The notes under the pieces are model-generated. The model did not search any database, was not told the origin of the DNA, and worked only from the letters and a program-made list of their open reading frames with translations. A program made the position numbers and the translations under genes. Positions 4,194 through 62,944 of a stretch of DNA of 64,000 nt are shown here, one piece after another (position 1 is the stretch's first letter; each line of letters starts with the position of its first letter). The stretch covers positions 41 to 64,040 of the forward strand of contig JBAIWX010000007.1 of assembly GCA_037916975.1 (NCBI GenBank), given 5' to 3'. Source of the DNA: Gemmatimonadales bacterium (GTDB taxonomy: Bacteria > Gemmatimonadota > Gemmatimonadetes > Gemmatimonadales > GWC2-71-9).

Positions 4194-5306
4194 ATGCCCC
4201 AGCGACGACTCCGCCGCCCCGTGCGGCGCCTCCCCCACGCGGCCCTCGCCCTCGCCGCCGCGGCGTTCGTTCCCCCCGTCGTTGCCCAGCAGCAGCCGAT
4301 CGCTCCCCCCGCGCACTTCGAGAAGCTCGCCCACACCTACAGCATCGTCGCGTGGGACTCGGTGACCGGCGACCTCGGCGTCGCGGTGCAGTCCAAGTTC
4401 CCGAACGTGGGCGGCATCGTCCCGTGGGCGAAGGCGGGCGTGGGCGCGGTCGCGACACAGAGCCTCGGGAACACGGCCTACGGCGAGCGCGGGCTCGAGC
4501 TCCTGGGCCTCGGCGCGTCGGCGGAGGAGGCGCTCCGCATCGTGATGCGCACCGACACGATGCTCGCCGACCGCCAGGTGGGGATCGTGGACGCGCGCGG
4601 GAACGCGGCGAGCTTCACCGGGACGCGCACCTTCGACTGGGCCGGCGGGCGGGTCGGCTGCGCGCCGGGCGCGGCGCCGGCGGGCGACTCGGTGCGGGTC
4701 GAGCGCGCGGCCGGCGGGTGCCAGGTGGCGGGCGGGAAGGGGGCGGTGATCGCGGGGCGCGGCTTCGCGGCGCAGGCGAACATCATGGTCTCCGACCGGA
4801 CCGTGCGGAACATGGCCGACGCCTACCAGCGCGCGACCGGCGACCTCGCGAGCCGCCTGATGGCGGCGCTCGAGGCGGGGCAGGCGGGCGGCGGGGACAA
4901 GCGCGGCATGCAGTCGGCGGCGCTCCTCGTCGTGCGGCGGGGCGGGGGCTACCTCGGCGCCAACGACCGCTTCATCGACATCCGCGTCTACGACGCGCCG
5001 CAGCCGATCGCGGAGCTCCAGCGGCTCCTCGCGCTCCACCGGCTCCACTTCTTCCCGAGCGAGCCGGCGGACCTCGTCCCGATCACGCCGGCGATCGTGC
5101 GGCAGCTCGAGCCGATCCTGCTCCGGGAGCCGGCGGGCCAGGCGCAGCACTGGCTCGCCGCGCCGCAGGGGAGCGCCACCCCGGCCTTCCTCGCGGCGCT
5201 CCGCGACTTCATGTACTGGGAGAACTACGACGTCCGCGTCCGCATGGACGGGCAGATCGACCGCGTCGTGCTGCAGGACATCCTCCGGAAGCGCGCCGGG
5301 CAGTGA
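4194..5306 (+). CDS. Secreted DUF1028 (Ntn-hydrolase fold) protein with C-terminal extra domain
   Basis: 370 aa. Signal peptide ...VVAQQQP. HTYSIVAWD...GVAVQSKF motif typical of DUF1028. The C-terminal ~90 aa (ITPAIVRQLEPILL...FMYWENY) look like a peptidoglycan-binding-like repeat. Confidence 0.7.
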   Translation: MPQRRLRRPVRRLPHAALALAAAAFVPPVVAQQQPIAPPAHFEKLAHTYSIVAWDSVTGDLGVAVQSKFPNVGGIVPWAKAGVGAVATQSLGNTAYGERGLELLGLGASAEEALRIVMRTDTMLADRQVGIVDARGNAASFTGTRTFDWAGGRVGCAPGAAPAGDSVRVERAAGGCQVAGGKGAVIAGRGFAAQANIMVSDRTVRNMADAYQRATGDLASRLMAALEAGQAGGGDKRGMQSAALLVVRRGGGYLGANDRFIDIRVYDAPQPIAELQRLLALHRLHFFPSEPADLVPITPAIVRQLEPILLREPAGQAQHWLAAPQGSATPAFLAALRDFMYWENYDVRVRMDGQIDRVVLQDILRKRAGQ

Positions 5307-5342
5307 GCGCCGCTTCGTGACCCCACCGACGGGAGACCACCG

Positions 5343-6869
5343 GTGACCTCGACCCCCCCGACCGCCCAGGACACGGCCTTCTTCGGCCACCCGCGCGGCC
5401 TGTCCACGCTCTTCTTCACCGAGATGTGGGAGCGCTTCGCCTACTACGGCATGCGCGCCATCCTCATCCTGTTCATGACCGCGTCGGTGGCGAACGGCGG
5501 CCTCGGCTTCGACGTCGCGAAGGCGGGCGCGGTGTACGGGACGTACGTCGCGCTGGTGTACATGCTCACGCTGCCGGGGGGCTGGATCGCCGACCGGATC
5601 CTCGGGCTCCGGCGCTCGGTGCTGTACGGCGGCATCCTCATCATGCTCGGCCAGGGGTGCCTCGCGGTGCCGGGGACGGCCTTCTTCTACCCGGGCCTCC
5701 TCCTGATGGTGCTCGGCGTGGGCCTCCTCAAGCCGAACGTGAGCGTCATCGTCGGCGAGCTGTACGGGCGCGAGGACGTGCGGCGCGACGCGGGCTTCTC
5801 GATCTTCTACATGGGGATCAACCTCGGCGCCTTCATCTCGCCGCTCATCGTGGGCTGGCTCGCGCAGAGCGACGGCTTCAAGGCGATGCTGCAGGGCTGG
5901 GGCATCACGCCCGAGACGTCGTGGCACTGGGGCTTCGGCGTGGGCGCGCTCGGCATGTTCCTCGGGCTGGTGCAGTACGTGCTGGGGTGGAAGCACCTGG
6001 GGGAGGCCGGGATGCACCCGAGCGTGGCCCCCGCCTCGGCGGAGGGCGCGGCGGCCCGGCGGCAGCTCTGGCTCGGGGCGGGGGCGCTCCTCGCCGTCGT
6101 CGCCGCCGTCGCGGCGCTCGTGGTGCAGGGGGTGCTGAGCGTGCAGACGGTGACGAACGCGTTCAGCGGGCTCTACTTCCTGATCGTCGTCGCGTTCTTC
6201 GTCTGGCTCTTCTTCTTCGGCACGTGGACGCGGGACGAGTACAAGCGGCTCGTCGTGATCCTCGTCCTCTTCGTGGGCGCCGCGATCTTCTGGTCGGCGT
6301 TCGAGCAGGCCGCGTCCACGCTCAACCTCTTCGCCAACGAGAAGACGCGGAACAGCGTCTTCGGGTGGACCTTCCCGGCGAGCTGGTTCCAGTCGGTGAA
6401 CGCGGTGATGATCATCGCGCTCGCGCCGGTGTTCGCGTGGATCTGGCTCGCCCTCGGCAAGCGCGACCCGTCGAGCCCGGCCAAGTTCGCCGTGGGGCTC
6501 CTCTTCGTGGGGCTCGGCTTCGCGGTGATGGTGGGGGCGGCGCAGGCGGCGGCGGGGGGCGAGAAGGTGAGCCCGGGGTGGCTCACGCTCACCTACCTCC
6601 TGCACACGATCGGCGAGCTCTGCCTCTCGCCGGTGGGCCTCAGCTCGATGACGAAGCTCGCGCCCGACCGGGTGAAGGGGCTGATGATGGGCGTCTGGTT
6701 CCTCGCCGCGTCCATGGGGAACCTGATCGCGGGGCGGGTGGTGGGCTTCCTCGAGAAGTTCAGCCCCGCGCAGATCTTCACGGCGGTGACGGCGTTCGCG
6801 ATCGTGGCGAGCGTCGTGATGTTCGCGCTCGTGGCGCCGATCCGCCGGATGCTCGAGCGCGAGGGCTAG
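5343..6869 (+). CDS. Proton-dependent oligopeptide transporter (POT/PTR2 family di-/tripeptide permease)
   Basis: 508 aa. FFGHPRGLSTLFFTEMWERFAYYGMRAIL and FYMGINLGAFISP PTR2 signatures, about 14 TM segments. Confidence 0.9.
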   Translation: MTSTPPTAQDTAFFGHPRGLSTLFFTEMWERFAYYGMRAILILFMTASVANGGLGFDVAKAGAVYGTYVALVYMLTLPGGWIADRILGLRRSVLYGGILIMLGQGCLAVPGTAFFYPGLLLMVLGVGLLKPNVSVIVGELYGREDVRRDAGFSIFYMGINLGAFISPLIVGWLAQSDGFKAMLQGWGITPETSWHWGFGVGALGMFLGLVQYVLGWKHLGEAGMHPSVAPASAEGAAARRQLWLGAGALLAVVAAVAALVVQGVLSVQTVTNAFSGLYFLIVVAFFVWLFFFGTWTRDEYKRLVVILVLFVGAAIFWSAFEQAASTLNLFANEKTRNSVFGWTFPASWFQSVNAVMIIALAPVFAWIWLALGKRDPSSPAKFAVGLLFVGLGFAVMVGAAQAAAGGEKVSPGWLTLTYLLHTIGELCLSPVGLSSMTKLAPDRVKGLMMGVWFLAASMGNLIAGRVVGFLEKFSPAQIFTAVTAFAIVASVVMFALVAPIRRMLEREG

Positions 6870-6878
6870 GCCCGTCCC

Positions 6879-7415
6879 TCAGTCGTGGCGGTCGGCGGCG
6901 TAGAGGAGCACGTCGCCGACCTCCTCGTCCCACAGGGCGCCGACCCGGCGCATCCCGATCTTCTCCGCCACGCGCACCGACTTCTCGTTCCAGGGCGGGA
7001 TCGTGGCCGCGACGCGCCGGACGCCCGGCTGGCGGAGGGCCCAGTCGAGGAGCCCCCCCGCCGCCTCGGTGGCGAAGCCGTGGCCCTCGTGGCCGGGATA
7101 GGTCGCGTAGCCCATGATGACGGCGCCCTCGGCGTCCGGGGGACCGCCGAGCCCGACCGAACCCACCGCCTGCCCGGTGTCCCGCCGCACCACGACCCAA
7201 CTCCACCACCCGTCCTGCGACGGGTCGCGCCGCAGGCGGTCGCGGAGGTCCGGCAGGACGTCCTCCATGAGCGGCGGCGGGGCGAGCGGCTGCGGGAAGG
7301 CGGCGCTCGTGAGTGCCGAGAGCCGGAGCGCGTCGCCCGCGAGGAGCGCGTCGATCGCCTCGGCGGAGAACGGCGTGAGGGTGAGGCGGTCGGTGCGGAT
7401 CGGGCCGGCGGGCAT
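6879..7415 (-). CDS. GNAT family N-acetyltransferase (RimJ/RimL-like)
   Basis: C-terminal 178 aa of the 571-aa track ORF starting MPAGPIRTDRLTLTPF. GYATYPGHEGHGFATEAAGGLLDWA acetyl-CoA-binding-type motif. Confidence 0.8.
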   Translation of the reverse strand: MPAGPIRTDRLTLTPFSAEAIDALLAGDALRLSALTSAAFPQPLAPPPLMEDVLPDLRDRLRRDPSQDGWWSWVVVRRDTGQAVGSVGLGGPPDAEGAVIMGYATYPGHEGHGFATEAAGGLLDWALRQPGVRRVAATIPPWNEKSVRVAEKIGMRRVGALWDEEVGDVLLYAADRHD

Positions 7416-7502
7416 GGGCGGCGCGCTCTCTTCTCGGGGGTCGGCGGGATTCTTACATTGGGACCAGCCGCCGGCAAGACCCGGCCCCACCCGGAGCATC
7501 CT

Positions 7503-8621
7503 ATGGCCAGCTTCACCCGCACGGCCGCCGTCTCGACCCACGGCCAGCGCACCCTCACCCGGCGCGAGTACACCGACCCGGCGCACTTCGCGGAGGAGCT
7601 CGAGCGCGTCTTCGCCGCCCACTGGGTCTGCGTCGGGCGCGAGGAGCAGGTGGCGAACCCCGGCGACTACGTGCTCGTGGACGTGGCGGGCGAGAGCCTC
7701 GTGCTGCTCCGCGACCGGGGCGGTGCCGTGCGCGCGCACTTCAACGTCTGCCGCCACCGCGGCACGCGGCTCTGCGAGGAGCCCTGCGGCACCCTGGGCG
7801 AGACGATCCAGTGCCCCTACCACGCGTGGACCTACGCGCTCGACGGCCGCCTCGTCGGCGTGCCGGACCAGAAGGAGTTCGAGGGGTTCGACCGCGGGCA
7901 GTTCGGCCTCAAGGCGGCGGCGGTCGCGACCTGGGGCGGGTTCCTCTTCGTGCACCTCGGCGACCGCCCGGAGCCGTTCGCCGAGTGGTTCGCGCCCGTG
8001 ATGGCGCGGAGCGCGCGGTGGGGCCTCGAGGGGCTGCGCGTGGCGCGCCGGATCGAGTACGACGTGCGCGCCAACTGGAAGATCCTCTTCGAGAACTACT
8101 CCGAGTGCTACCACTGCTCGCCGGCGCACCCGGCCCTCGCGCGGCTCTCCCCCTCCACGAGCGGGGAGAACGACCTCACCGACGGGCCGTTCCTCGGCGG
8201 CTTCATGCAGGTGACGCGCCCGGGCGGGAGCCTCACCGAGAGCGGCGCCAGCTGCGGGCTCCCGGTGGGCGACCTCCCCGAGGCGGAGCGGCAGCGCGTG
8301 TACTACTACTCGATCTTCCCGAACATGCTGCTGAGCCTGCACCACGACTACGTCATGGTGCACACCTTCCGCCCGCAGGCGCCCGATCGCACGCTCGTCA
8401 CCTGCGAGTTCCTCTTCCAGCCCGGCTCGCGCGAGGCGGGGTTCGACCCCGACGACGGCGTGCGCTTCTGGGACCGCACCAACCGCGAGGACTGGCATCT
8501 CTGCGAGCGCACGCAGCAGGGGGTCGGGAGCCGCGCCTACCGGCCCGGCCCCTACTCGCGGCGCGAGAGCGTGAGCGCCGCGTGGGACCGGCACTACCGG
8601 CAGGTGATGGCCGAGGGCTGA
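7503..8621 (+). CDS. Rieske [2Fe-2S] aromatic ring-hydroxylating oxygenase, alpha subunit-like
   Basis: 372 aa from ATG 7503 (MASFTRT). Rieske CRHRG...CPYHAW motif and mononuclear-iron motif NYSECYHCSPAHP. Confidence 0.85.
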   Translation: MASFTRTAAVSTHGQRTLTRREYTDPAHFAEELERVFAAHWVCVGREEQVANPGDYVLVDVAGESLVLLRDRGGAVRAHFNVCRHRGTRLCEEPCGTLGETIQCPYHAWTYALDGRLVGVPDQKEFEGFDRGQFGLKAAAVATWGGFLFVHLGDRPEPFAEWFAPVMARSARWGLEGLRVARRIEYDVRANWKILFENYSECYHCSPAHPALARLSPSTSGENDLTDGPFLGGFMQVTRPGGSLTESGASCGLPVGDLPEAERQRVYYYSIFPNMLLSLHHDYVMVHTFRPQAPDRTLVTCEFLFQPGSREAGFDPDDGVRFWDRTNREDWHLCERTQQGVGSRAYRPGPYSRRESVSAAWDRHYRQVMAEG

Positions 8622-9495: not shown

Positions 9496-10518
9496 TCAGT
9501 GCGTCGGCCGCGCGTCCCGGCCCTTGAAGATCCGGAACAGGTAGGCGAGCGAGGGCACGAGCACGACGAAGCCCAGCGCGAGCGCGGCGAGGATGAGCTC
9601 GAGCGTCGCGGCGGGCGCGGCGGCGCCCTCGATCGTGAGGTCGGGCGGGAGCAGGTAGGGATACTGCACGAAGCCCCAGCCCCAGAGGATGAGCGTCGCC
9701 TGCACCGGGGCGGCGAGCCGCGCGAGCCGGTAGCGCCGCCGCAGGAGCGCGGCGAAGGCGGTGACGGCCGGCAGCGCCACCGCGGCGTGGTAGCCGGGGG
9801 ACCAGCGGCTGGCGACGAGCCCTTCCCAGACGTGCGGCGCCCCCGCCCGTGCCAGCGCGAGCGTCACCATCGCGGCGAGGAACAGCGCCACCTGCGCGGC
9901 GAGGGCGCGGCGGCGGAAGTCCTCCTGCAGCGCGGGGTCGCGCGCCTCGACGGTGAGGTACACCGCCGCGAGGAAGGCGAAGAGCGCGAGCGTGAGCGCG
10001 CCGATCGCGAAGGGGAAGGGCTGGAGCCACGGCGTCACGTAGCCCGCGGTGAACGACGCCGCCGGGGCCGCGGGAATCCGCCCGGCCGCCGCCGTCCCGG
10101 CCGCGACGCCCAGCAGCACGGGCGTCACGAGGCTCGCCCACGAGAACAGGAGCCCCCAGCGGCGCTGGACGTCGTCGCGCTGGCTGTCGTAGCTCCGGAA
10201 GGTGAAGGCGGAGCCGCGGAGCACGATCCCGACCAGCATGAGGGTGAGCGGGACGTGGAGCGTGATGGAGAGGCGGGCGAACGCCGCCGGGAAGCAGACG
10301 AAGAGCAGCACCACGACCAGGATGAGCCAGACGTGGTTCGCCTCCCAGATGGGGCCGATCGCGTCGGCGATGAGGGCGCGCTGCCGGGCGCGGCGCGGGC
10401 CGGTCGCGAGGAGGTCCCAGACGCCGCCGCCGAAGTCGGCGCCCGCCATCAGCACGTAGGCGGTGAGCGCCGCCAGGATGGCGGCGGCGACGAGGAAGGC
10501 CGGCGTGAGCTCAGGCAC
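9496..10518 (-). CDS. cydB: Cytochrome bd-type quinol oxidase subunit II
   Basis: 340 aa. LMAGADFGGGVWDLL...IGPIWEANHVWLI, typical of CydB. There is an 8-nt overlap with cydA. Confidence 0.9.
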   Translation of the reverse strand: MPELTPAFLVAAAILAALTAYVLMAGADFGGGVWDLLATGPRRARQRALIADAIGPIWEANHVWLILVVVLLFVCFPAAFARLSITLHVPLTLMLVGIVLRGSAFTFRSYDSQRDDVQRRWGLLFSWASLVTPVLLGVAAGTAAAGRIPAAPAASFTAGYVTPWLQPFPFAIGALTLALFAFLAAVYLTVEARDPALQEDFRRRALAAQVALFLAAMVTLALARAGAPHVWEGLVASRWSPGYHAAVALPAVTAFAALLRRRYRLARLAAPVQATLILWGWGFVQYPYLLPPDLTIEGAAAPAATLELILAALALGFVVLVPSLAYLFRIFKGRDARPTH

Positions 10519-11854
10519 CCTGCAGCACCGGCGGCACGTAGGTCCGCTGCCACTCGTCCACGTCGGGGCTCCGCACGATCTGCCGGTAGAGGAGCCAGAC
10601 CACGGCGACGGCGAGCGCCACGTAGAGCAGCGTGAAGAAGGTGAGCGGCACGACGAGCCCCGGCATCGGCGTCACCGCCTCCGCCGTCCGGAGCACCCCC
10701 TGGATGATCCACGGCTGGCGTCCCACCTCGGTCACCACCCATCCCGCCTCGATCGCGACGAAGCCCATCGGTGCGGCGAGGGCGAGTGCCCGCATGAGCC
10801 AGCGCCGGCCGGCGAGGTCCTGCCGCCGGAACGCGCACACCGCGGCCCAGAGCGACACGAGCAGCATGAAGGTGCCGAGGCCCACCATCAGGTCGAACGC
10901 GGCGTGCACGATCGCGACCGGCGGCCAGAGCTCGCGCGGGATGCGGTCGAGCCCGCGGACCTCGGCGGCCGGGTCGCCGTGGGCGAGGAAGGAGAGGAGC
11001 TTCGGCACCGGGATCGCGCCCTTCACCGTCATCGTCGCCTCGTCGGGGAAGCCGCCGATGAGGAGCGACGCCCCGGGCTCCGTGTGGAAGTGCGCCTCCA
11101 TCGCCGCGAACTTCGCGGGCTGGAGCCGGGCGAGCATCTTGGCGCTCAGGTCGCCCGAGACCGGCTGCACGATCGCCGCGGGCGCGCCCACGAGGAGCGC
11201 CACCGCGAGCGCCCGGCGGTGGAAGGCGTTCTGCGGCCGGCGCAGCAGCATCCAGGCGTGGATCCCGGCGACGCCGAGGCCGGTGGCGGCGTAGGCGGCG
11301 AGCGTCATGTGGAGCGCCTGGGTGAACGCCGCGGGGTTGAGCATCGCGCGCACCGGGTCGATGCCGGTGATGCGGCCCCCCTCGAGGGTGAAGCCCGTCG
11401 GGGCGTTCATCCAGCCGTTCGCCATCACGACGAAGATCCCCGACACCGCCCCGCTCGCCGCGACCAGCACCCCCGCCACGAGGTGCGCCCTCGGCGAGAG
11501 GCGGTCCCACCCGTACAGGTAGATCCCGAGGAAGATGGCCTCCGTGAAGAAGGCGAAGCCCTCGAGCGAGAAGGGCATGCCGATGATCGGGCCGGCGAAC
11601 TCCATGAAGCGCGGCCAGAGGAGCCCGAGCTCGAAGGAGAGCACCGTCCCCGACACCGCGCCCACCGCGAACATGATCGCCGTGCCCTTGGCCCACCGCT
11701 TCGTGAGCTCGAGGTAGAGCGCGTCCTTCGTCTGCCGCCAGCGCAGCTCCGACACCACCATCAGGAGCGGCATGCCGATCCCGATGACGGCGAAGACGAT
11801 GTGGAAGGCCAGCGAGATCGCCATCTGCGATCGCGCCGCGAAGAGGTCGGTCAT
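10511..11854 (-). CDS. cydA: Cytochrome bd-type quinol oxidase subunit I (short Q-loop type)
   Basis: 447 aa. ARSQMAISLAFHIVFAVIGIGMP..., GWVVTEVGRQPWIIQGVLRT motifs. Confidence 0.9.
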   Translation of the reverse strand: MTDLFAARSQMAISLAFHIVFAVIGIGMPLLMVVSELRWRQTKDALYLELTKRWAKGTAIMFAVGAVSGTVLSFELGLLWPRFMEFAGPIIGMPFSLEGFAFFTEAIFLGIYLYGWDRLSPRAHLVAGVLVAASGAVSGIFVVMANGWMNAPTGFTLEGGRITGIDPVRAMLNPAAFTQALHMTLAAYAATGLGVAGIHAWMLLRRPQNAFHRRALAVALLVGAPAAIVQPVSGDLSAKMLARLQPAKFAAMEAHFHTEPGASLLIGGFPDEATMTVKGAIPVPKLLSFLAHGDPAAEVRGLDRIPRELWPPVAIVHAAFDLMVGLGTFMLLVSLWAAVCAFRRQDLAGRRWLMRALALAAPMGFVAIEAGWVVTEVGRQPWIIQGVLRTAEAVTPMPGLVVPLTFFTLLYVALAVAVVWLLYRQIVRSPDVDEWQRTYVPPVLQGA

Positions 11855-11887
11855 GCGTCCCGTGCCGCGGTGCAGGAGTGGCTCATT

Positions 11888-11907
11888 CTTGTGAAACTAT
11901 TCACAAG
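11888..11907. promoter_or_regulatory. CRP/FNR-family operator-like palindrome upstream of cydAB
   Basis: CTTGTGAA-ACTA-TTCACAAG, a perfect 8-bp inverted repeat containing TGTGA-N6-TCACA. It is centred about 44 bp upstream of the cydA ATG in a locally AT-richer intergenic region. Confidence 0.5.
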
Positions 11908-25351: not shown

Positions 25352-25668
25352 TGCGCCCCGCCCCCTGACGCAGGCCCGTTCCGGGCCGCGCTCTTCCCGA
25401 ATCATGAAGGACCCCGGCATCCCGCCCGAAGTCTCGCGTGCCGAGTGCAACGAATCGTTCCACTCGCGCGATTGCATTACAGAAGCCCTACCGCGCGCCT
25501 CCCGTTTTTCAGCGTAAATCATTATCCGGCAATCCCTTGGTTTTGTTCTCCGCAGCGCTACGGATGGCCTGTCGGTTGCAACGATTTTCGACGCTGTTCG
25601 CGAGCTGCTTGCCGGAGACCCGACGACCCCCACCCGGACGCCCGGCGTCCGGGTCGCCAAGGATTGCG

Positions 25669-26604
25669 ATGTCCGCACCGACCGCCACGCTCGACCGCTC
25701 CGCCGAGGCCTCCCCCGCGCGCCGCCCCGCCGTCCGGAAGGGCCGCGGGGGGACGGTCGCCATCGTCGTCATCCTCGCGGCCCTCACCGCGGCATCGCTT
25801 GCGGGGCTCTCCTACTACCGCCTGCCGGCCGCGGCGCGCGTGCGCGACCCGCTCCACGCCTGGCTCAAGCCGTCCGGCCTGATCGGCCAGAGCGCGGGGA
25901 TCCTCGGCTTCCTCGTCTTCCTGTTCCTCTGGCTCTACCCGTTCCGCAAGAAGTACAAGTGGCTCGCGTGGACCGGTTCGGTGGGGAAGTGGCTCGACGT
26001 GCACGTCGTGACGGCGCTCGGGCTCCCGCTCCTCGTGGCGATCCACGCGGCGTGGAAGTTCGAGGGGCTGATCGGGCTCGGGTACGCCTCGATGCTGGTG
26101 GTGTGCGCGAGCGGCATCGTGGGCCGCTACCTGTATGCGCGGATCCCGCGCAGCCGGAGCGGTGTCGAGCTCACCCGCGACGAGGTGGCGGCGGAGCGCC
26201 GGGCGCTCGTGACCGAGATCGCCGCGGCGACGGGCCAGACGCCGGACCAGGTGAGCCGCACGCTGGACGAGGCGGCGGGGACGGCGGAGCAGGGCCTCGG
26301 CCGCGCCTTCGCGCGGATGCTCCTCAACGACCTGATCCGCTGGCGCACCACCCGCCGGCTCCTCCGCGAGTGGGGGCAGGCGGGCCCCGGGGGGACGCCG
26401 CTCCCGCCGGCGAAGATCCGCCAGCTCGCCGAACTGGTGAACAGCGAGATCGCGCTGGCGCAGCAGGCGCGCCTCCTCGAGGCGACGCAGGCGGCGTTCC
26501 GGCTCTGGCACGTCGCGCACCGGCCGTTCGCGGTCACCGCGCTCGTCGCCGTCACCGTCCACGTGATCGTGGTGATCGCGATGGGCGCGACCTGGTTCTG
26601 GTAG
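25669..26604 (+). CDS. 5-TM membrane protein with intramembrane His residues (possible b-heme/electron-entry subunit)
   Basis: 311 aa from ATG 25669; the upstream part of the track ORF crosses a low-GC leader. TM segments contain [32 protein letters not shown]. Long cytoplasmic helical insert. First gene of the cytochrome operon. Confidence 0.6.
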
Positions 26605-26611
26605 CCGCGCC

Positions 26612-28039
26612 GTGGAAATGCTCCTCACCACCCTCGTGGTGGTCGCGATCACGGCGCTCTCGGTGTGGCGGCACCTGCGCCAGCACGCGCCGGCGCGCCC
26701 GGCGGGCCAGGCCTGCGCGCGCTGCCGGGCAGCCGTGCCCGAGGGGGCGCGCACCTGCCCGAAGTGCGGGGTGCCCCTGCAGGTGTTCGAGGTGGTGGCG
26801 GCGCCCGCCGCGACGGCCGCACCCGCGGCGGCGGCGGGACAGCGGCACGCAGTGGTGCGGGCGGACGTCTGCGCGGGCTGCGGGACCTGCGTCGCGGCCT
26901 GCCCGGAGGACGGCGCGATCCGCCTCGAGAAGAAGCTGGCCGTCGTGGACCTCGCGCACTGCGTGGGTCACGGGGACTGCGCGGCGGCCTGCCCGGTCAA
27001 CGCGATCGTGGTCGGCGCGGGCGACGGCGTGCAGCGCGTCGAGGTGCCGGAGGTGGACCGGAGCTTCCGCGCGAACGTGCCGGGGATCTACGTCGTGGGG
27101 GAGCTGGGCGGGCGCGGCCTCATCAAGAACGCGGTCAACGAGGGGAAGGTCGCCGTCGAGGCGATCGCCCAGGAGCTGCCGCCGGGGCAGCTGCGGCTCG
27201 ACGGCTACCTGCACGCGCTCGACGTCGTGATCGTGGGCTCGGGCCCGGCGGGGCTGAGCGCCGGGCTCGAGGCGCACCGCGTGGGGCTCAAGTACGTGGT
27301 GCTCGAGCAGGGCTCGCTCGCCGACACGATCCGCCGCTACCCGCGCCACAAGCTCCTCTTCGCCGAGCCGCTCACGGTCCCGCTCTACGGAGACCTGTGG
27401 ATCTCGGATGCGTCGAAGGAGAACCTCCTCGCGGTCTGGGAGACGATCGTCCGGAAGACCGGGCTCACCGTGCTCACGGAGCACAAGGTCACGAACATCA
27501 TCCGCCGGGACGACATCCTCGAGGTGGTCGTGCCCGGGCGGAAGTTCCTCACGCGGCGGGTTGTCCTCGCCCTCGGCCGCCGCGGCACGCCCCGCAAGCT
27601 CGGCGTCCCCGGCGAGGAGCTGGGCAAGGTCGTCTACGACGTCGCCGAGATGGAGGACTTCAAGGGACGGCGGGTGCTCGTCGTGGGCGGCGGGGACAGC
27701 GCGCTCGAGTCGGCGATCGGGCTCGCGAGCCAGCCGGGGACGACGGTCACGCTCAGCTACCGCGGCACCTCCTTCGACAAGGCGAAGGAGCGGAACCGGG
27801 CCAAGCTCGACGCCGCCGTGGCCGCGGGCCGGGTGCGCCTCATGCTGCAGAGCCAGGTGCGGGAGATCCGCGACGACGTCGTCGTGCTGGACGTGGAGGG
27901 CGCCTCGACGATCCTCCCCAACGACGACGTGATCGTGCGGATCGGCGGCGAGGCCCCGTTCGCCTTCCTCGAGAAGATCGGCGTGCGGATCATCACCAAG
28001 GAGATCCGCCTGCAGCCGGACGTGCAGCAGCGTGCCTGA
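26612..28039 (+). CDS. Membrane-anchored Zn-ribbon / 2x FeS ferredoxin / FAD-NAD(P) pyridine-nucleotide-disulfide-type oxidoreductase fusion
   Basis: 475 aa. N-terminal TM ([16 protein letters not shown]). CARC-x11-[16 protein letters not shown] and [26 protein letters not shown] (FAD) and [14 protein letters not shown] (NAD(P)) dinucleotide folds. Confidence 0.8.
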
Positions 28040-30083
28040 CCTGCGCCGGCTCCTCCGCGCCGCGCTCCCCGCGCTCGCCGCCCTGGCCCTCGGCCGGGCG
28101 GCACCGGCGCACGCGCAGATCTCGCCCGGGCCGCTGGCGCAGCCGCATGCGCAGCTCGAGGGCACGCTCAAGTGCACCCAGTGCCACGCGAGCAGGAAGG
28201 AGGAGATGCCGAGGGTCTGCCTCGCCTGCCACCGGGAGATCGGCTGGCTCGTGGAGCGGAACCGCGGCCTCCACGCGCGCGAGCGCGCGACGCCCTGCCA
28301 GAGCTGCCACCCGGACCACGCGGGGCGCGACTTCGCGCTCGTGAGCTGGAAGGAGGGGGCGCCCGAGCGCTTCGACCACCAGCGCGCCGGCTTCCGGCTC
28401 GAGCTGAGCCACGCGAAGGCGAAGTGCGAGGCGTGCCACGCGGCCAAGTACCGCGTGTCGCCCGCGGCGGCGCTCGCCCCGCAGAAGGGCGCGCACTGGA
28501 CCGGCCTCGAGACGGGGTGCACCGCCTGCCACGAGGACGTCCACCAGGGCGCGCTGGACAAGGACTGCACCAAGTGCCACGACGCCGGGAAGTGGGTGCT
28601 CGCGCCCGGCTTCGACCACAAGACGACCCGCTACCCGCTCACCGGCGCGCACGACACCGTCTCGTGCGACGGCTGCCACCTCGCGAAGCGGCTGCCGCTC
28701 CGGCTCGCCGCGACGGGGAAGCCGATCCCGGTCTACAAGCCGCTCCAGTTCGGCGAGTGCTCGAGCTGCCACGCCGACCCGCACAAGGGGAAGTTCGGGG
28801 CCGAATGCTCGTCGTGCCACGTGACGGCGAGCTTCCGGAAGATCGACAAGGACAACTTCGACCACGAGAAGACGCGCTACCCGCTCCGCGGGAAGCACGC
28901 GGCGGTCGCGTGCGCCAAGTGCCACGCGCCGGGCGACCCGGCGGGGAAGAAGCCCCCATTCGCGCGCTGCGCGGACTGCCACCGCGACGACCCGCACGCC
29001 GGCACCGCGAAGCTCGCGGGCGCGGTGGCGGACTGCGCGAGCTGCCACAAGGTCGAGGGGTGGACCCCCGCGACGTACACGGTGGCCGACCACGACCGGG
29101 CGCCGTACCGCCTCGAGGGGAGGCACCGCGAGGTGCGGTGCGCCGAGTGCCACCAGAAGCGGCCGCCGGGCGTGCCGGCGGCGGTCCTCGGCAGTGCGGG
29201 CGTCCAGCTCCGGCCCGCGTCCAAGGCGTGCCGTGACTGCCACGCCGACGACCACGGGGGCCAGCTCGCCCAGCGGCCCGACAAGGGCGCGTGCGAGGCC
29301 TGCCACAGGGTCGCGGGCTGGGACCAGACCACCTACGGCATCGCCGAGCACGCGAAGCTCCGGCTTCCCCTCGACGGCAAGCACGCGACGATCCGCTGCG
29401 GCGCGTGCCATGCGGCCGACCGCAAGGGCCTGCCGGGGTTCGCCAACGTCGCGGCCCTCGGCAAGGCGCGCGTGCTCATGAAGCTGGCGAGCGCCGAGTG
29501 CGCCTCGTGCCACGTGGACGTGCACGACGGTCGGTTCGCCCAGGGCGGCGAGCGCGCCAAGCCGGAGGGGTGTGCGGCGTGCCACGACGCGCGCGCCTTC
29601 CGGCCCTCCACCGTCGCCGCGGCGCAGCACGAGCGGTACGCCTTCCGGCTCGAGGGCGCCCACCGGGCGACGCCCTGCGTCGCCTGCCACGCCGACCTCA
29701 AGACCACGGCCGGCGGCAGCTTCCTGCTCGCGGCGGCGCGCAAGCCGGCGACGCCGCTCGCGCTCGCCGTGGCGAAGCGGGACTGCGCGGACTGCCACGC
29801 GAGCGAGAGCCCGCACGGCGACCAGTTCGCGGGCCGGAAGGACCGGGGGGCCTGCGAGGCCTGCCACTCGGTGGCGGCGTTCGCGCCCGCCGACCGGTTC
29901 GACCACGACCGTGACGCGTCGTTCTCCCTCGCGGGGGCCCATGCCAGGGTGCCCTGCGCCAAGTGCCACGTGCCCGACGCCCAGGCCGCCGCGCGCGGCG
30001 GGGTGCGGGTGCGCTACCGGCCGCTCTCGGGGAAGTGCGAGAGCTGCCACGACGACGCCACCGCGCGTCGCCCGACCCGCTAG
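28032..30083 (+). CDS. Multiheme c-type cytochrome, 23 CxxCH motifs, signal peptide
   Basis: 683 aa. I counted 23 CxxCH, arranged as seven three-heme modules plus one two-heme module. Signal peptide ...AAPAHAQ with no lipobox. 8-nt overlap with the upstream gene. Confidence 0.9.
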
Positions 30084-30092
30084 GAGGCCGCC

Positions 30093-31370
30093 ATGCGCCG
30101 ATCCCGGTTCGTCGCGCTCGCCGCGCTGCTCCCCGCCCTCGTGGGTGGGCGGCTCGCGGCGCAGGACACGGGGCAGGACCCCGGGCAGAACCCGCACGGC
30201 CCGCTCAAGGTCGAGTGCAGCACCTGCCACGTCGCCACCAGCTGGACGGTCGTGCGGCCGGCGAAGCAGTTCGCGCACGCGCCGGCCACCTTCCCGCTCC
30301 AGGGGGCCCACGCGAGCACCTCATGCCGCGCCTGCCACCGGGCGCTCGACTTCACCGGCACGCCGACGGCCTGCGTGAGCTGCCACAAGGACGTGCACCA
30401 GGGCGAGCTCGGCGCCGACTGCGCCCGCTGCCACTCGGCGCGGAGCTTCGTGGACCGCGCGACGATGCTGCGCCAGCACCAGACGGCGCGCTTCGTCCTC
30501 ACGGGCTCGCACGCCGCGGTGGACTGCGAGCAGTGCCACACGGCAAAGGGGCAGGGACGGCTCGCGTTCACGAACACCCCGTCGCGCTGCGAGGACTGCC
30601 ACCTCGACCGCTTCGCCGCGACGCGGAACCCCGACCACACTGCCGGCGGCTTCTCGCGCGACTGCAACCAGTGCCACGCCACGGCGCTCTGGACCCCCGC
30701 GCGGTTCAACCACGCGGCGGGCCGCTTCCCGCTCACGGGGGCGCACCGCGCGGTGGCCTGCGACCAGTGCCACGCCAACAACCGCTTCGCCGGCACGCCG
30801 ACGGCCTGCGTGGGCTGCCACCTGACGGACTGGCAGGGGACCACGAACCCGAGCCACCAGACGCTCAACTTCCCGCAGGAGTGCACCCAGTGCCACTCCA
30901 CCGTGTCGTGGAGCGGCGCGACCTTCGACCACACGGTGACCGGGTTCACGCTCACCGGCCAGCACAAGTCGGTGGCGTGCACCGACTGCCACAAGAACGG
31001 CGTCTTCGCCGGCACCCCGACCACCTGCGTCGGGTGCCACCAGCAGGACTACGCCGGCACGACGAACCCGAACCACCAGGCGGCGGGTTTCCCGACCGAC
31101 TGCGCGTCGTGCCACACCACGGCGGGATGGGCGGGCGCGACCTTCAACCACGACGGGACCTTCTTCCCCATCTACTCCGGGGCGCACCGCGGCCAGTGGA
31201 CCGACTGCGCCACGTGCCACACGAGCCCCACGAACTTCGCGACGTTCACGTGCCTCACGTGCCACGTGCACGACAAGCCCACGATGGACGCCAAGCACCA
31301 GGGGCGCGCCGGGTACACCTACGACAGCCAGGCGTGCTACCGCTGCCATCCGCAGGGGAGGGCCGGCTGA
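30093..31370 (+). CDS. Multiheme c-type cytochrome, 16 CxxCH motifs, signal peptide
   Basis: 425 aa. 16 CxxCH counted, with the same F-[DN]-H...G-x-H...CxxCH module as the preceding gene. Signal peptide ...GGRLAAQD with no lipobox. Confidence 0.9.
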   Translation: MRRSRFVALAALLPALVGGRLAAQDTGQDPGQNPHGPLKVECSTCHVATSWTVVRPAKQFAHAPATFPLQGAHASTSCRACHRALDFTGTPTACVSCHKDVHQGELGADCARCHSARSFVDRATMLRQHQTARFVLTGSHAAVDCEQCHTAKGQGRLAFTNTPSRCEDCHLDRFAATRNPDHTAGGFSRDCNQCHATALWTPARFNHAAGRFPLTGAHRAVACDQCHANNRFAGTPTACVGCHLTDWQGTTNPSHQTLNFPQECTQCHSTVSWSGATFDHTVTGFTLTGQHKSVACTDCHKNGVFAGTPTTCVGCHQQDYAGTTNPNHQAAGFPTDCASCHTTAGWAGATFNHDGTFFPIYSGAHRGQWTDCATCHTSPTNFATFTCLTCHVHDKPTMDAKHQGRAGYTYDSQACYRCHPQGRAG

Positions 31371-32941
31371 TGCGGACCACGACGCTCCTCCTCGGCGCGC
31401 TGGCGCTCGCGACGCCGCTCGCGGCCCAGGACTCGGCCGCGACGCGCAGCGCGCGGATCACCTACCTCACCAGCACCACCGCGTACCTCGACGCAGGGCG
31501 GGAGGACGGCCTCGCGACCGGTGCGCTCCTCGACGTGCGGCGGCAGGGGGCGAGCGTGGGCGCGCTGCGGGTGACGGACCTCTCGTCCCACCGGGCGGCC
31601 GGCGAGATCGTCCGTGCCGACCAGCCGCTCGCCGTCGGCGACTCGGCCTGGTACGTCCCGGTCGCCGCGCCCGCCGAGGCGCAGGTGGCGCAGGCGGGCG
31701 ACGCGAGCGCGGCCCGGCGCCGCGGCCGCCACCCCGACGCGCTCCGGGGCCGGATCGGCGTGCGCTACCTGTACAGCTCGGCGGCGGGGGGCGCGCGGGA
31801 CCTCTCGCAGCCCGCGCTCGACGTGCGGCTCGACGGCACGAACCTCGGCGGCACGCCGCTCGGGCTCGCCGTGGACGTGCGCGCCCGCTGGACCAACACC
31901 GGCGGCACCGGCGCCGTGACCACCAACGACGGGGTGGCGCGCGTCTACCAGGCCGCGCTGCTCGTCGAGTCGGCGAAGAGCCCGGTCCGCGCCGTCGTGG
32001 GCCGCCAGCTGTCGCCGACCATCGCCACGGTGAGCTTCCTCGACGGCGCGCTCGTCGAGGCGCGCGGGAAGAGCTGGGCCGTGGGCGCGATCGGCGGGAC
32101 GGAGCCGGACCCGGTCACCTTCGCCTGGTCGAAGGACATCACCGACGTCGGCGGGTACGTGCAGCTGCGGAGCCCGGTCGGCGCGGCGAAGCGCTGGAGC
32201 GCGACGCTCGGGGCCGTCGGCTCGTACACCGAGAGCCGCGCCAACCGGGAGTTCGCCTACCTGCAGGGGAGCTACCTCGACCGGAACGTCTCGGCCTTCC
32301 TGGCGCAGGAGCTGGACTACTACCGCCCCTGGAAGGTGGCCCTCGGCGAGAAGAGCAGCCTCTCGCCCACGAGCACCTTCGCGAGCCTGCGCGTCCGCGT
32401 GAGCGACGGCGTGAGCCTCTCCGCCGGCTACGACAACCGGCGCAACGTGCGGCTCTTCCGCGACGCGGTGAACCCCGAGACGGTCTTCGACGATTCGTTC
32501 CGGCAGGGCGTGTGGGGCGGGGCCTTCTTCTCCTTCGCACGGCACCTGCACCTCGGGCTCGATGCGCGCACGAGCGACGGCGGCACCGCCGGCCACGCCG
32601 ACCTCTACTCGGTGACCATGGGGGCGACGAACCTCGGGCGGGCCGGCCTCTCGATCCGGGGCCGCGGGACGCGCTACCAGAACGCGGTGCAGGACGGCTG
32701 GCTCGGCTCGCTCTCGGTGGGCGTCTCGCCCGGCTCGCGGCTCTCCCTCGAGGTGAACGGCGGGCTGCGGAGCGAGCACAACGCCGCGGCCGACCCCGCG
32801 ACGCAGCAGGTGACGTGGGTGGGCGGCTACGCCGACTTCTCGCTGCTGCGGTCGCTCTACCTGATGGTCTCGGCCACCCACGAGTCGGGCGCCCTCGAGG
32901 GGAGCGACCAGGGCTACCTGAGCCTCACCTGGCGCTTCTGA
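31370..32941 (+). CDS. Outer-membrane beta-barrel protein with N-terminal soluble domain (putative porin partner of the cytochromes)
   Basis: 523 aa from ATG 31370 (TGATG overlap with the cytochrome stop) inside the 992-aa track ORF. Signal peptide ...TPLAAQD, many amphipathic strands, aromatic C-terminus ...YLSLTWRF. Confidence 0.7.
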   Translation: MRTTTLLLGALALATPLAAQDSAATRSARITYLTSTTAYLDAGREDGLATGALLDVRRQGASVGALRVTDLSSHRAAGEIVRADQPLAVGDSAWYVPVAAPAEAQVAQAGDASAARRRGRHPDALRGRIGVRYLYSSAAGGARDLSQPALDVRLDGTNLGGTPLGLAVDVRARWTNTGGTGAVTTNDGVARVYQAALLVESAKSPVRAVVGRQLSPTIATVSFLDGALVEARGKSWAVGAIGGTEPDPVTFAWSKDITDVGGYVQLRSPVGAAKRWSATLGAVGSYTESRANREFAYLQGSYLDRNVSAFLAQELDYYRPWKVALGEKSSLSPTSTFASLRVRVSDGVSLSAGYDNRRNVRLFRDAVNPETVFDDSFRQGVWGGAFFSFARHLHLGLDARTSDGGTAGHADLYSVTMGATNLGRAGLSIRGRGTRYQNAVQDGWLGSLSVGVSPGSRLSLEVNGGLRSEHNAAADPATQQVTWVGGYADFSLLRSLYLMVSATHESGALEGSDQGYLSLTWRF

Positions 32942-42496: not shown

Positions 42497-43849
42497 CTAC
42501 CCCTTGAGCGTGGAGAGCTGCGAGAGCGACCCGGTGCTCTGCCCCTGGAGGCGGCTGAGCGCGGATTCCATCCGGGCGAACTGGAGGTTGAGCTGGGAGC
42601 GGCGCTGCGCGAGGCGGGCGTCCACGCGCGCGATCCGCTCGTTGAGCGAGTCGATGCGGGCGCGCAGCTGCGTCTCGCGCGTCGCGATGCTGCCGGTCCC
42701 GACGCGGACGAGGTCGTCGGCGAGGCTCGCAAAGGCGGCGCCGCGGTCGGCGGCCATGGCGGTCACGTCGTCGCGGTGCGCGGCGTAGGCGTCGTCGAAC
42801 TTGGCCGCGTTGAACGTCATCCGGCCCTCGCTCGTCAGGCTCACGCCGACGGCGGCGAGGGTCTGGGTGTCCACCCCGACGCTCGTCACCCGCGCGAGCA
42901 CCGTGTTGGACAGCGAGAAGCGGGTGCTGCGGAGCAGGGTGTCGCCGTAGAGCGGGGCCTGGACCCCGTTCACCGGCTGGGCCTGCTGCCCCTTCATGTA
43001 GTCCACGATCCCGTTGTACGCGTCCACGAAGGCCTGCATCGCGTCGCGCGCCGCCTTCGGGTCGGCCGCGATGCGCAGGGTCGCCGTCGTGCCCTGCTCC
43101 TCCGCGAGGAGGTTCAGGGTGACGCCGGGGATCGCGTCGGTGATCGTGTTGGAGCTCCGGGTCACGTCCACCCCGTCCACCCGGATCTTCGCGTCCTGGC
43201 CGGCGGTCGTGAGCAGGTCGAGTTCCCCCGCGCCGAGCACGCCATCGGGGCTCCCGTCGGCGAGGGTGAGCGAGGCGGCGCCGGTCGTCGAGGCCTTGAG
43301 GACGAGGGCGTAGTGCGTCCCGTCGGTCGAGATGACCGACGCGCGCACCTTCGTCGGGGAGGTCCCGGTGTCGAGGGCGTTGATCGCGTCGCGCACGGCG
43401 TTGAGCGAGTCGCCCGCGGCGACGGTGACGGTCTGGCCGTTGACGGTGAACGTGCCGGTGAAGCCGAGGGCCGCGCCCGGGTCGGTGACGGTCGCCTGCG
43501 AGCGGGCGACGCCGGCGCGCGCGCGCTGGACGACCTCGACCTCGTAGTCGCCGGGCTTGGCGAGCAGGCCGGTGGTCGCGCTGAAGAGCGGGCTGCCCGC
43601 GGACGTGGTGCCGGTGACGGTCGCGGCGAGCGCGCCGAGGCCGGAGCCGTCCTTGAGCTTCGTGGCGGCGGTGTTGAGCGCGCCGACCAGGGTGCGGTAC
43701 TTCCCCCACTGGTCGAGCTGGTCCTGCACCTTCGAGACGGTCGCCTCGTCCCGCGCGGCGGGGGCCCGCTCCTGGGCGATGATGGCATCCACGAGCTTCT
43801 TCGTGTCGATGCCGCTCGAGAGGCCGCTGAAGGAGGTGAGCGGGTCCAT
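42497..43849 (-). CDS. fliD: Flagellar filament cap protein FliD
   Basis: 450 aa. MDPLTSFSGLSSGIDTKKLVDAII N-terminus and C-terminal QLNLQFARMESALSRLQGQ heptads. Confidence 0.9.
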   Translation of the reverse strand: MDPLTSFSGLSSGIDTKKLVDAIIAQERAPAARDEATVSKVQDQLDQWGKYRTLVGALNTAATKLKDGSGLGALAATVTGTTSAGSPLFSATTGLLAKPGDYEVEVVQRARAGVARSQATVTDPGAALGFTGTFTVNGQTVTVAAGDSLNAVRDAINALDTGTSPTKVRASVISTDGTHYALVLKASTTGAASLTLADGSPDGVLGAGELDLLTTAGQDAKIRVDGVDVTRSSNTITDAIPGVTLNLLAEEQGTTATLRIAADPKAARDAMQAFVDAYNGIVDYMKGQQAQPVNGVQAPLYGDTLLRSTRFSLSNTVLARVTSVGVDTQTLAAVGVSLTSEGRMTFNAAKFDDAYAAHRDDVTAMAADRGAAFASLADDLVRVGTGSIATRETQLRARIDSLNERIARVDARLAQRRSQLNLQFARMESALSRLQGQSTGSLSQLSTLKG

Positions 43850-43881
43850 GGGGCGTCAGGGGTCGGGGAGGGGCGGTGGCG

Positions 43882-59753: not shown

Positions 59754-59810
59754 GCCTCGCTCCGTCCTCCCTGCGCGCGCCGGGTGACAACGTTCTTCCG
59801 GGCCACTACA

Positions 59811-59838
59811 TTCTCGGAACGTTCTGCCGGGGACTTGA
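59811..59838 (-). promoter_or_regulatory. Weak sigma-28-like promoter upstream of flgL
   Basis: The minus strand reads CTCAAGT CCCCGGCAGAACGT TCCGAGAA, i.e. TCAA-N16-TCCGAGAA (6 of 8 matches to GCCGATAA). Confidence 0.3.
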
Positions 59839-59881
59839 GGCGCATCCTGCCGGTCAGCCCCGGCCCCTCGTTCCGGGGTCC

Positions 59882-62931: not shown

Positions 62932-62944
62932 GCCCCGCGCCCCC

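Follow-up and report, generated by a model that had tools for sequence, protein, structure and literature searches.

A five-gene locus of a Gemmatimonadales bacterium suggests an NAD(P)H-fed, PCC3-like cytochrome conduit across the cell envelope

How are electrons delivered to a porin-cytochrome conduit when none of the inner-membrane proteins known to feed such conduits is encoded beside it? This question is raised by a group of five genes, named here g1 to g5, in a Gemmatimonadales bacterium (assembly GCA_037916975.1, contig JBAIWX010000007.1). They lie at positions 25669-32941 of the 64,000-nucleotide (nt) stretch that was analysed, referred to below as the window. The genes are predicted to encode an inner-membrane protein with five transmembrane (TM) segments, a membrane-anchored oxidoreductase combining iron-sulfur (Fe-S) motifs with a flavin adenine dinucleotide (FAD)/NAD(P) domain, two large secreted multiheme cytochromes c with 39 heme motifs between them, and an outer-membrane β-barrel. 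No NapC/NirT, CbcL or ImcH-type gene and no gene for a lipoprotein cytochrome is present in the operon, and the host, being a member of the Gemmatimonadales, is not a classic metal reducer, in both respects as the original prediction had stated. A trans-envelope cytochrome conduit, which that prediction had proposed, is the best reading of the locus and is well supported by comparative genomics. With moderate confidence, and on the basis of sequence and synteny only, we propose that g2 and g1 would form a split feeder resembling NOX enzymes, carrying electrons from NAD(P)H to heme b and into a PCC3-like conduit that reaches across the whole envelope.

All five genes are read from the forward (+) strand. 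Gene g1 (25669-26604, 311 amino acids (aa)) encodes a putative di-heme b electron shuttle of the kind called "IMP" in PCC3 systems. After a 7-nt gap it is followed by g2 (26612-28039, 475 aa), for a putative cytoplasmic, membrane-anchored oxidoreductase with a zinc ribbon, two Fe-S motifs and a FAD/NAD(P) domain of the thioredoxin reductase (TrxR) type. The end of g2 overlaps by 8 nt the start of g3 (28032-30083, 683 aa), which encodes a secreted 23-heme cytochrome c built of c7-like triheme repeats and proposed to span the periplasm as a wire. A 9-nt gap separates g3 from g4 (30093-31370, 425 aa), whose product is a secreted 16-heme cytochrome c of variable length in relatives and a proposed outer or extracellular wire. 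Finally, g4 and g5 share 1 nt (TGATG), and g5 (31370-32941, 523 aa) encodes a predicted 22-strand outer-membrane barrel with the C-terminus ...TWRF. Coordinates, lengths and all four junctions were re-verified, and every detail of the earlier description that could be checked, including the leader, the 23 and 16 CxxCH motifs, the missing lipoboxes and the end of the barrel, was found to be correct. An alternative in-frame GTG start of g1 is present at 25438; close homologs are 308-311 aa long.

The arrangement was followed through a survey in which one genome per GTDB species was scanned for relatives of g1. At least 208 loci encode such relatives, and the best 80 are nearly all from Gemmatimonadota. 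The gene order g1-g3-g4-g5 is shared by the 51 Gemmatimonadota loci that carry all four of these genes; in four of the loci the barrel gene is inverted. A g2 homolog lies no more than 10 kb away in 48 of the 51, either between g1 and g3 (25 loci), divergently just upstream (22 loci, made up of 18 and the four with an inverted barrel), or elsewhere (one locus). The complete five-protein module was also found in five loci outside Gemmatimonadota. Because all five proteins recur together in dozens of genomes, the five-gene arrangement is not a matter of chance, and the co-occurrence on which the original prediction depended extends from close relatives across phyla.

The most accessible of the distant copies is located on the 100-kb plasmid pEMTOL02 of Emticicia oligotrophica DSM 17448, a cultured aerobe. 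There, the order is ccsA, a membrane protein of 281 aa, an NAD(P)-binding protein of 440 aa, a 23-heme cytochrome of 635 aa, a 40-heme cytochrome of 1001 aa, and a hypothetical protein of 538 aa. In BLASTP comparisons with the window, these proteins share 31% identity with g1 (E 6e-39), 41% with g2 (2e-101), 32% with g3 (7e-101), 42% with g4 (4e-89), and 25% with g5 (6e-20). The same five components are encoded in metagenome-assembled genomes (MAGs) of Ignavibacteriaceae and Saprospiraceae, and in two further genomes; in these loci outside Gemmatimonadota, the g2 homolog follows the membrane protein, a tetratricopeptide repeat gene, or the barrel. A fused ResB/CcsA-type cytochrome c synthase gene adjoins the module in Emticicia (locus L081, 8809-11895) and in the Saprospiraceae MAG (locus L084, 20799-20870). 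A short gene lies 3' of the barrel in both. In Emticicia it encodes a GW-domain protein, and in the Saprospiraceae MAG it is a 252-aa open reading frame (ORF) whose N-terminus resembles that of a lipoprotein; neither has a counterpart in the window.

The inner-membrane protein g1 contains five hydrophobic segments by hydropathy, and the His residues that had been noticed inside its helices were located as H112 and H126 in TM3 and H284 and H298 in TM5. They form part of the motifs W108-x3-H112-x13-H126 and W280-x3-H284-x13-H298, and TM4 carries S148-G-x-x-G152. The W/His motifs and SGxxG are invariant across 22 homologs, and the four His residues are invariant even among 42 diverse sequences of only 26-44% identity. 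Two His pairs spaced by 13 residues on TM3 and TM5 are a feature of the ferric-reductase superfamily that is thus present in g1. Weak matches to Ferric_reduct were obtained for 20 of the 22 family members (best E 0.006) and to DUF4405 for 19, and heme b binding has been demonstrated for DUF4405 proteins (PMC11334425). In the case of g1 itself, no Pfam or NCBIfam match exceeded the threshold, and sequence and profile searches of its family against the PDB (A1, A3) gave nothing meaningful. Taken from its conserved motifs, g1 is a putative heme b-binding protein.

The charge distribution of g1 follows the positive-inside rule and, for this reason, its N-terminus and the insert between TM4 and TM5 (approximately residues 159-275; 26143-26493, +) are assigned to the cytoplasm. 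Consequently, H112 and H284 would lie near the cytoplasmic side of the membrane, and H126 and H298 near the periplasm. The insert is helical in the AlphaFold2 model and contains 17 Lys and Arg residues; it might serve as a docking surface for g2. Neither CxxC nor another thiol motif occurs in g1. The g1 family comprises 2,468 clusters at 50% identity (E <= 1e-3), with named members from Krumholzibacteriia, Calditrichia, Ardenticatenaceae, Ignavibacteriaceae, Bacteroidales, and Saprospiraceae; there are no Proteobacteria among the distant matches listed.

The putative partner of this membrane protein, g2, is composed of domains recognised by Pfam as DZR (Double zinc ribbon), a Fer4_10 dicluster domain, and Pyr_redox_3 (E 7e-41, residues 206-460), and hydropathy adds a single N-terminal TM segment, so that the previously described combination of a TM anchor with zinc-ribbon, Fe-S and FAD/NAD(P) domains is borne out. 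The anchor is retained in every phylum aligned. No positive charge precedes it, several follow it, and no export signal is found, which together place the cofactor domains in the cytoplasm. All 11 Cys residues of g2 belong to the zinc-ribbon and Fe-S motifs, with none beyond residue 127. The ferredoxin-like domain (26852-27004, +) includes two Fe-S motifs, and in the second, C-x2-H-x2-C-x3-CP (26960-26995, residues 117-128), a His replaces the second Cys. This unusual form is conserved in all seven aligned g2 homologs, which come from several phyla, and in the first motif the second Cys is replaced by Ser or Thr in four Bacteroidota-type homologs. The second motif suggests a His-ligated [4Fe-4S] or [3Fe-4S] cluster, possibly the point at which electrons leave toward g1.

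The FAD/NAD(P)-binding domain of g2 (27221-27991, +) contains the Rossmann motifs GSGPAG and GGGDSA. Among solved structures, g2 comes closest to YpdA/Bdr (E 3e-29) and to ferredoxin-NADP reductases of the TrxR type, including 3ab1, 5ygq, and 3lzw. YpdA proteins have a conserved Cys in the first Rossmann motif. The assignment of g2 to YpdA/Bdr (TIGR04018) was rejected, with a score of 158.2 bits against a cut-off of 339.9 and a GSGPAG motif that lacks this Cys. Since the flavin domain is devoid of Cys, g2 is read as an electron-transfer flavoprotein and not as a disulfide reductase. Two Rossmann motifs, the lack of a redox-active CxxC, and an adjacent ferredoxin domain are the features of a TrxR-type ferredoxin-NAD(P)+ reductase with a fused ferredoxin, and all of them are present. 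In overall design, g2 resembles a membrane-tethered fusion of a ferredoxin with a ferredoxin:NAD(P) reductase. In locus L062 from Gemmatimonadales, the only divergent copy examined, the zinc ribbon is absent, and the TM anchor and both Fe-S motifs are kept. At 5152-8381 of this locus, the divergent g2 is followed by a CcmE-like ORF and by a NapA-like molybdopterin oxidoreductase of 799 aa with a twin-arginine (Tat) signal, the last two labels being judged from the translations alone. A metagenomic protein of 863 aa, P0267, joins a truncated g1-like part to Fer4 and Pyr_redox domains; it may be a natural g1-g2 fusion or a frameshift artefact and was not used as evidence.

Plasmids of Methylophaga (locus L082, 10055-13409) and Sphingobium (locus L087, 2246-5603) provide a second context for the g1 family. 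Here, a shorter g1 relative (26% identity, E 2.6e-12) that has SGxxG and two HX13H motifs is encoded between a flavo-FeS protein and a 7-heme cytochrome c. The flavo-FeS partner has 612-636 aa, a TM segment, and the domains FAD_binding_6, NAD_binding_1, and Fer2 (2Fe-2S); it weakly matches the ferric-reductase NAD-binding domain and is not homologous to g2. As in the window, a g1-homologous protein has as its companions an NAD-binding flavo-FeS protein and a multiheme cytochrome of the c7-like kind. The differences are that the plasmid partner is of the FNR type with a plant-type 2Fe-2S domain, whereas g2 is of the TrxR type with two [4Fe-4S] motifs, and that the plasmid module, unlike the window, has one small 7-heme cytochrome and no barrel. 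This three-gene module is the type listed by He et al. (2017) in their Supplementary Table 6 as "cytochrome + membrane protein + other redox protein", for example in R. palustris TIE-1 (PMC5566968). The association of one membrane-protein family with two unrelated flavo-FeS partners of the NAD(P) type is the strongest argument that proteins of the g1 family act as electron shuttles linking a cytoplasmic pyridine-nucleotide dehydrogenase to periplasmic c hemes.

The three-gene module adjoins genes for heavy-metal-responsive regulators, DUF1622, and copper-binding proteins, and it may have a periplasmic metal redox function. With g3 as the query, the module was detected on 13 sphingomonad plasmids (Sphingobium, Sphingomonas, and Rhizorhabdus), and 10 of the 14 matching plasmids are typed as conjugative.

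On the periplasmic side, g3 contains 23 CxxCH motifs and 48 His residues at 29.7 aa per heme, with motif spacings that recur in threes, and g4 contains 16 CxxCH motifs and 33 His residues at 26.6 aa per heme. CX3CH and CX4CH variants occur in neither protein. The total His counts fit bis-His ligation of the hemes, which are packed very densely in both proteins. Cytochrome_C7 matches g3 in nine stretches, and both proteins are chains of c7-type triheme units. Sec-type signal peptides are found on g3, g4, and g5; in the two cytochromes, the first Cys belongs to a heme motif, and a lipobox is therefore absent. No sequence relative of g3 or g4 was found among solved structures at E <= 0.01. Their assignment to known periplasmic reductases was rejected, as the NCBIfam matches to DmsE, HmcA, QrcA, and hydrazine dehydrogenase fell far under the cut-offs, which removes an objection that the original prediction had raised against itself.

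The two cytochromes differ in how they vary. Of 47 Gemmatimonadota loci, 44 encode a g3 homolog with 23 motifs, a number found again in Emticicia and the Saprospiraceae MAG, while g4 homologs have 12-70 motifs in Gemmatimonadota loci and 25-58 in other phyla. Heme counts of g4 homologs cluster on 3n+1 (13, 16, 19, 22 ... 64, 70), with 31 of 46 equal to 1 modulo 3 (p = 2.5e-6; loci L002-L078), which implies growth and shrinkage by triheme modules. A periplasmic wire (g3) and an unconstrained outer wire (g4) would fit the constancy of the former at 23 hemes and the range of the latter from 12 to 70.

The barrel was modelled with AlphaFold2 on 30 homologs, with a mean predicted local distance difference test score (pLDDT) of 79.6. 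In this model, a signal peptide is followed by a small N-terminal β domain (residues 26-95), a disordered linker (99-121), and 22 strands over residues 125-522, well above the limit of fewer than 16 strands below which the conduit would have been in doubt. A Foldseek search with the model returned only generic large barrels, namely ushers, OccK porins, and TonB-dependent receptors, and no Pfam, NCBIfam, or PDB sequence or profile match was obtained for g5. The last two residues, R522 and F523, are invariant among homologs. The N-terminal periplasmic domain is retained across phyla and weakly resembles FlgT_C in 8 of the 30 homologs.

Among described conduits, the closest in design is PCC3, which consists of a porin, two cytochromes, and an inner-membrane protein and has been predicted in Sideroxydans, Leptothrix, and other Alpha-, Beta-, and Gammaproteobacteria (PMC5566968; PMC9900912). 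Median heme numbers are 21 for its "periplasmic" cytochrome and 34 for its "extracellular" one, which can reach 63 hemes or more; its membrane protein has about 300 aa, five TM segments, SGXXG on TM4, and WX3HX13H on TM3 and TM5 (PMC5566968). In later work, the periplasmic cytochrome is given 21, 24, or 27 hemes, each taking up about 26-27 aa, the outer cytochrome is given 10-35, and the system is called "functionally unverified". Each component finds its match in the window. The porin of L. cholodnii has 22 predicted TM regions and g5 has 22 strands; the first cytochrome of PCC3 consists of triheme repeats with 21, 24, or 27 hemes, and g3 has 23 hemes at 29.7 aa each; the second ranges from 10 to more than 60 hemes, and g4 has 16, with 12-70 in its relatives; and the 311-aa g1 carries the full published motif set. 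The systems differ in that PCC3 has four genes, ordered extracellular cytochrome, porin, periplasmic cytochrome, and membrane protein, and no cytoplasmic partner, whereas g2 is a near-constant fifth member here. PCC3 has been reported from Proteobacteria, in contrast to the window system, which occurs in Gemmatimonadota, Bacteroidota, Ignavibacteriaceae, Calditrichota, Krumholzibacteriota, and some Chloroflexota, and the electron partner proposed for PCC3 is quinone. A tblastn search with g1 and g3 against 72,556 plasmids did not find proteobacterial PCC3. The membrane proteins of PCC3 and of PCC4, a cluster described along with it from iron oxidizers and other Proteobacteria, have these motifs in common with no detectable overall homology (PMC5566968). 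The window system is therefore described here as working like PCC3, a likeness of features and motifs that does not make it a proven member, since motifs do not prove family identity.

The proposed feeder resembles NOX/FRE enzymes and the MsrQ-Fre pair, in which electrons pass from NAD(P)H through a flavin to two stacked b hemes, whose ligands are His pairs of TM3 and TM5, and on to an acceptor across the membrane. E. coli MsrQ is reportedly fed by a separate cytosolic flavin reductase, so that split feeder systems have a precedent. There are clear differences as well: g1 has five TM segments instead of six, has a cytoplasmic insert of about 115 aa, and scores below the Pfam cut-off; the dehydrogenase part is a protein of its own, with a TrxR fold and Fe-S motifs; and the acceptor would be a 23-heme cytochrome instead of O2, an Fe(III) chelate, or MsrP.

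Other conduits are more distant. MtrCAB of Shewanella and the MtoAB/PioAB systems also have a barrel in the outer membrane, paired with a periplasmic multiheme cytochrome and joined by another, outer cytochrome, but MtrCAB relies on decaheme proteins, the lipoprotein MtrC, and the feeder CymA (NapC/NirT). The solved structure of MtrB has 26 strands. A prediction for MtrB-type barrels gave 28 TM motifs (PMC4245776). Identity with MtrCAB/MtoAB was rejected, with g3 scoring 46.9 bits against the DmsE/MtrA model TIGR03508 (cut-off 192.2) and having 23 hemes, not 10. Geobacter Pcc (OmaB-OmbB-OmcB) is likewise a porin-cytochrome complex, with a barrel of 18-22 predicted strands, and is known from Ignavibacterium album too (PMC4245776). 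Its periplasmic cytochromes have 5-14 hemes and its outer cytochromes, which are lipoproteins, 1-15 (PMC4245776). Its feeders ImcH and CbcL have no equivalent in the window operon, and identity with Geobacter Pcc was rejected by these ranges, given 23 and 16 hemes here (up to 70 in relatives) and no lipobox.

From these comparisons, a route for the electrons can be proposed. At the cytoplasmic face, g2, held by its one TM helix, would take electrons from NAD(P)H through FAD to two Fe-S clusters. Two stacked b hemes in g1 would then carry them across the inner membrane in the manner of ferric reductases, NOX, or MsrQ, with no need for quinone. The 23-heme wire of fixed length, g3, would lead them across the periplasm into the 22-strand barrel g5, and g4, free to vary in length, would prolong this path at the cell surface or past it, ending at an acceptor that is insoluble or of high molecular weight, for instance Fe(III) or Mn(IV) oxides or humics. 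Electrons passing outward from NAD(P)H to bis-His c hemes would move downhill, helped by the membrane potential, and inward reduction of NAD(P)+ would be uphill in both respects; it is for this reason that an outward direction is favoured. Of this scheme, the gene content, the motifs, the model of the barrel, and the synteny across phyla have been shown, and we infer the binding of the cofactors, the contact between g2 and g1, the identity of the cytochrome inside the barrel, the direction of flow, and the independence of quinone. More tentatively, the lineages concerned, namely Gemmatimonadota together with lineages of Bacteroidota, Ignavibacteriaceae, and Calditrichota, may perform quinone-independent extracellular electron transfer, with g2 and g1 injecting electrons directly and the outer segment being changed in three-heme steps.

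Several observations weigh against this scheme. The score of g1 against PF01794 is 12.3 bits, with a cut-off of 28; its AlphaFold2 model is mediocre (pLDDT 72) and retrieved no PDB structure below E = 1 with Foldseek, including no NOX, MsrQ, or cytochrome b; and in hhalign the membrane-protein profile aligned with E. coli MsrQ only over the W-x3-H...H stretch, without significance (E 0.16). In 3 of the 51 Gemmatimonadota loci, g2 was not found within 10 kb. No secretion route is evident for g4, and it has no lipid anchor that would retain it at the surface. Outward flow driven by NAD(P)H would dissipate the membrane potential instead of building it, with no obvious physiological benefit. The window system and PCC3 are, moreover, both predicted systems. 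He et al. read the PCC3 membrane protein as a ferric-reductase-like di-heme b protein, and the published hypothesis for such membrane proteins is a quinone-reactive cytochrome b (PMC5566968). A quinone site in g1 would be compatible with all of the data.

The last point leads to electron uptake of the PCC3 type, in which Fe(II), Mn(II), reduced humics, or a partner cell would supply electrons through g4, g5, and g3 to g1, which would reduce the quinone pool as the kind of cytochrome b that He et al. proposed, with g2 as an accessory or alternative outlet. The presence of all four PCC3 features speaks for this explanation, as do the occurrence of PCC3 in iron oxidizers, the rise of its membrane-protein gene with iron-oxidation activity in Sideroxydans CL21, and the cytochrome bd oxidase encoded in the window, a possible quinol sink. 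A quinone route, however, leaves unexplained why a membrane-anchored flavo-FeS protein of the NAD(P) type is almost universally linked to g1, and why a different NAD-binding flavo-FeS protein takes its place in Proteobacteria. By established bioenergetics, the reduction of NAD(P)+ from such donors would also run uphill in redox potential and have to overcome the membrane potential. What is known of Gemmatimonadota, Emticicia, and Saprospiraceae is an organotrophic way of life; they are not known to oxidize iron. We therefore consider uptake unlikely, though it is the alternative to which we would give most weight. On a different view, the whole system would stay in the periplasm, reducing a soluble substrate or acting as a store or capacitor, and g5 would be a substrate porin or scaffold with no cytochrome inside. 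A lipobox or recognised surface-sorting signal is missing from both cytochromes, the related proteobacterial three-gene module is barrel-free and lies among metal-resistance genes, and a capacitor role has been suggested for giant cytochromes, all of which would suit such a system. It is nevertheless quite improbable in our judgement: all complete loci, from Gemmatimonadota to Bacteroidota, keep the barrel gene together with the cytochrome genes, the barrel is large (22 strands) with an N-terminal periplasmic domain conserved across phyla, and a periplasm whose width is fixed could hardly accommodate a g4 of 12-70 hemes beside a g3 that is constant at 23.

A third possibility, which we regard as very improbable, is that g1 and g2 serve maintenance, for example by keeping apocytochrome cysteines or heme reduced while these very large cytochromes mature, and that electrons enter the conduit from an unlinked quinol dehydrogenase. 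Maturation genes do adjoin the cluster in some loci: Emticicia and the Saprospiraceae MAG have a fused ccsA/ResB, and L062 has an ORF that looks CcmE-like from its sequence. The nearest solved relatives of g2 also include the thiol-disulfide-related YpdA. Yet g2 lacks the active-site Cys of YpdA and has no Cys anywhere in its flavin domain, g1 has no thiol motif, and the window operon has no adjacent maturation gene. A four-His di-heme design is, furthermore, typical of electron shuttles and not of thiol transfer as in DsbD/CcdA.

The operon is preceded by a leader of 317 nt (25352-25668, +) with 64% GC, compared with about 69-80% in neighbouring 500-nt windows, and this leader is partly conserved in the closest relative, L001. 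An Rfam search and a sigma-70 promoter scan of the leader matched nothing, and a scan for intrinsic terminators found none. A weak candidate for a sigma-54-like -24/-12 element, TGGCCTGTCGGTTGCA, is located at 25565-25580 (+), 89 nt before the ATG of g1, with 9 of 11 consensus positions matching and GG/GC in register. It was rejected as a conserved feature, with a similar element in 6 of 80 related loci versus 3 of 80 on the reverse strand. A sigma-54 activator, a sigma-54-dependent response regulator, is encoded at 59747-61303 (+) of the window. A near-palindrome, GTGCAAC-GAATC-GTTCCAC, lies in the leader at 25445-25463; it is partly kept in L001 and could be a regulator site.

The operon is self-contained. 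The flanking genes are unrelated to it, both upstream (DUF481, LEA_2-like, and VTT/DedA-like) and downstream (DUF2784, a winged-helix regulator, and UppS), no cytochrome c maturation gene lies beside it, and apart from g3 and g4 the 64-kb window contains no ORF with two or more CxxCH motifs. The subunits I and II of cytochrome bd oxidase, a high-affinity quinol oxidase, are encoded by cydAB at 9499-11896 (-), about 14 kb upstream. Flagellar genes are present for FliD (42500-43855, -) and FliF (62918-64000, +), and the organism is probably motile.

The original prediction had called the architecture undescribed, which does not hold for the porin, the two large multiheme cytochromes, and the five-TM protein, published as PCC3 in 2017 (PMC5566968), and may hold for the flavo-FeS partner g2. 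This partner, the NAD(P)H-fed, NOX-like reading, and the occurrence in Gemmatimonadota and in lineages of Bacteroidota, Ignavibacteriaceae, and Calditrichota are absent from the searchable literature and are new as far as could be shown. If the proposal is true, it would add a fourth way to feed a porin-cytochrome conduit, beside CymA, ImcH/CbcL, and bc-type complexes. It also suggests that the PCC3/PCC4 membrane protein of iron oxidizers may be a NOX-type shuttle and not a quinone-reactive cytochrome b. The very large cytochromes of Saprospiraceae, termed "undescribed" in a 2024 survey, and those of their relatives would gain a function. The proposal is testable, as the whole module is carried on a plasmid of the cultured Emticicia oligotrophica DSM 17448.

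If the conduit is indeed fed by NAD(P)H, metagenome searches for extracellular electron transfer, whose present markers are CymA, ImcH, CbcL, Mtr, and Omc, would change. These organotrophs could then discharge reducing power to minerals or humics, bypassing quinone, and the membrane-protein family in question includes abundant lineages of soil, groundwater, and activated sludge that are not regarded as electroactive.

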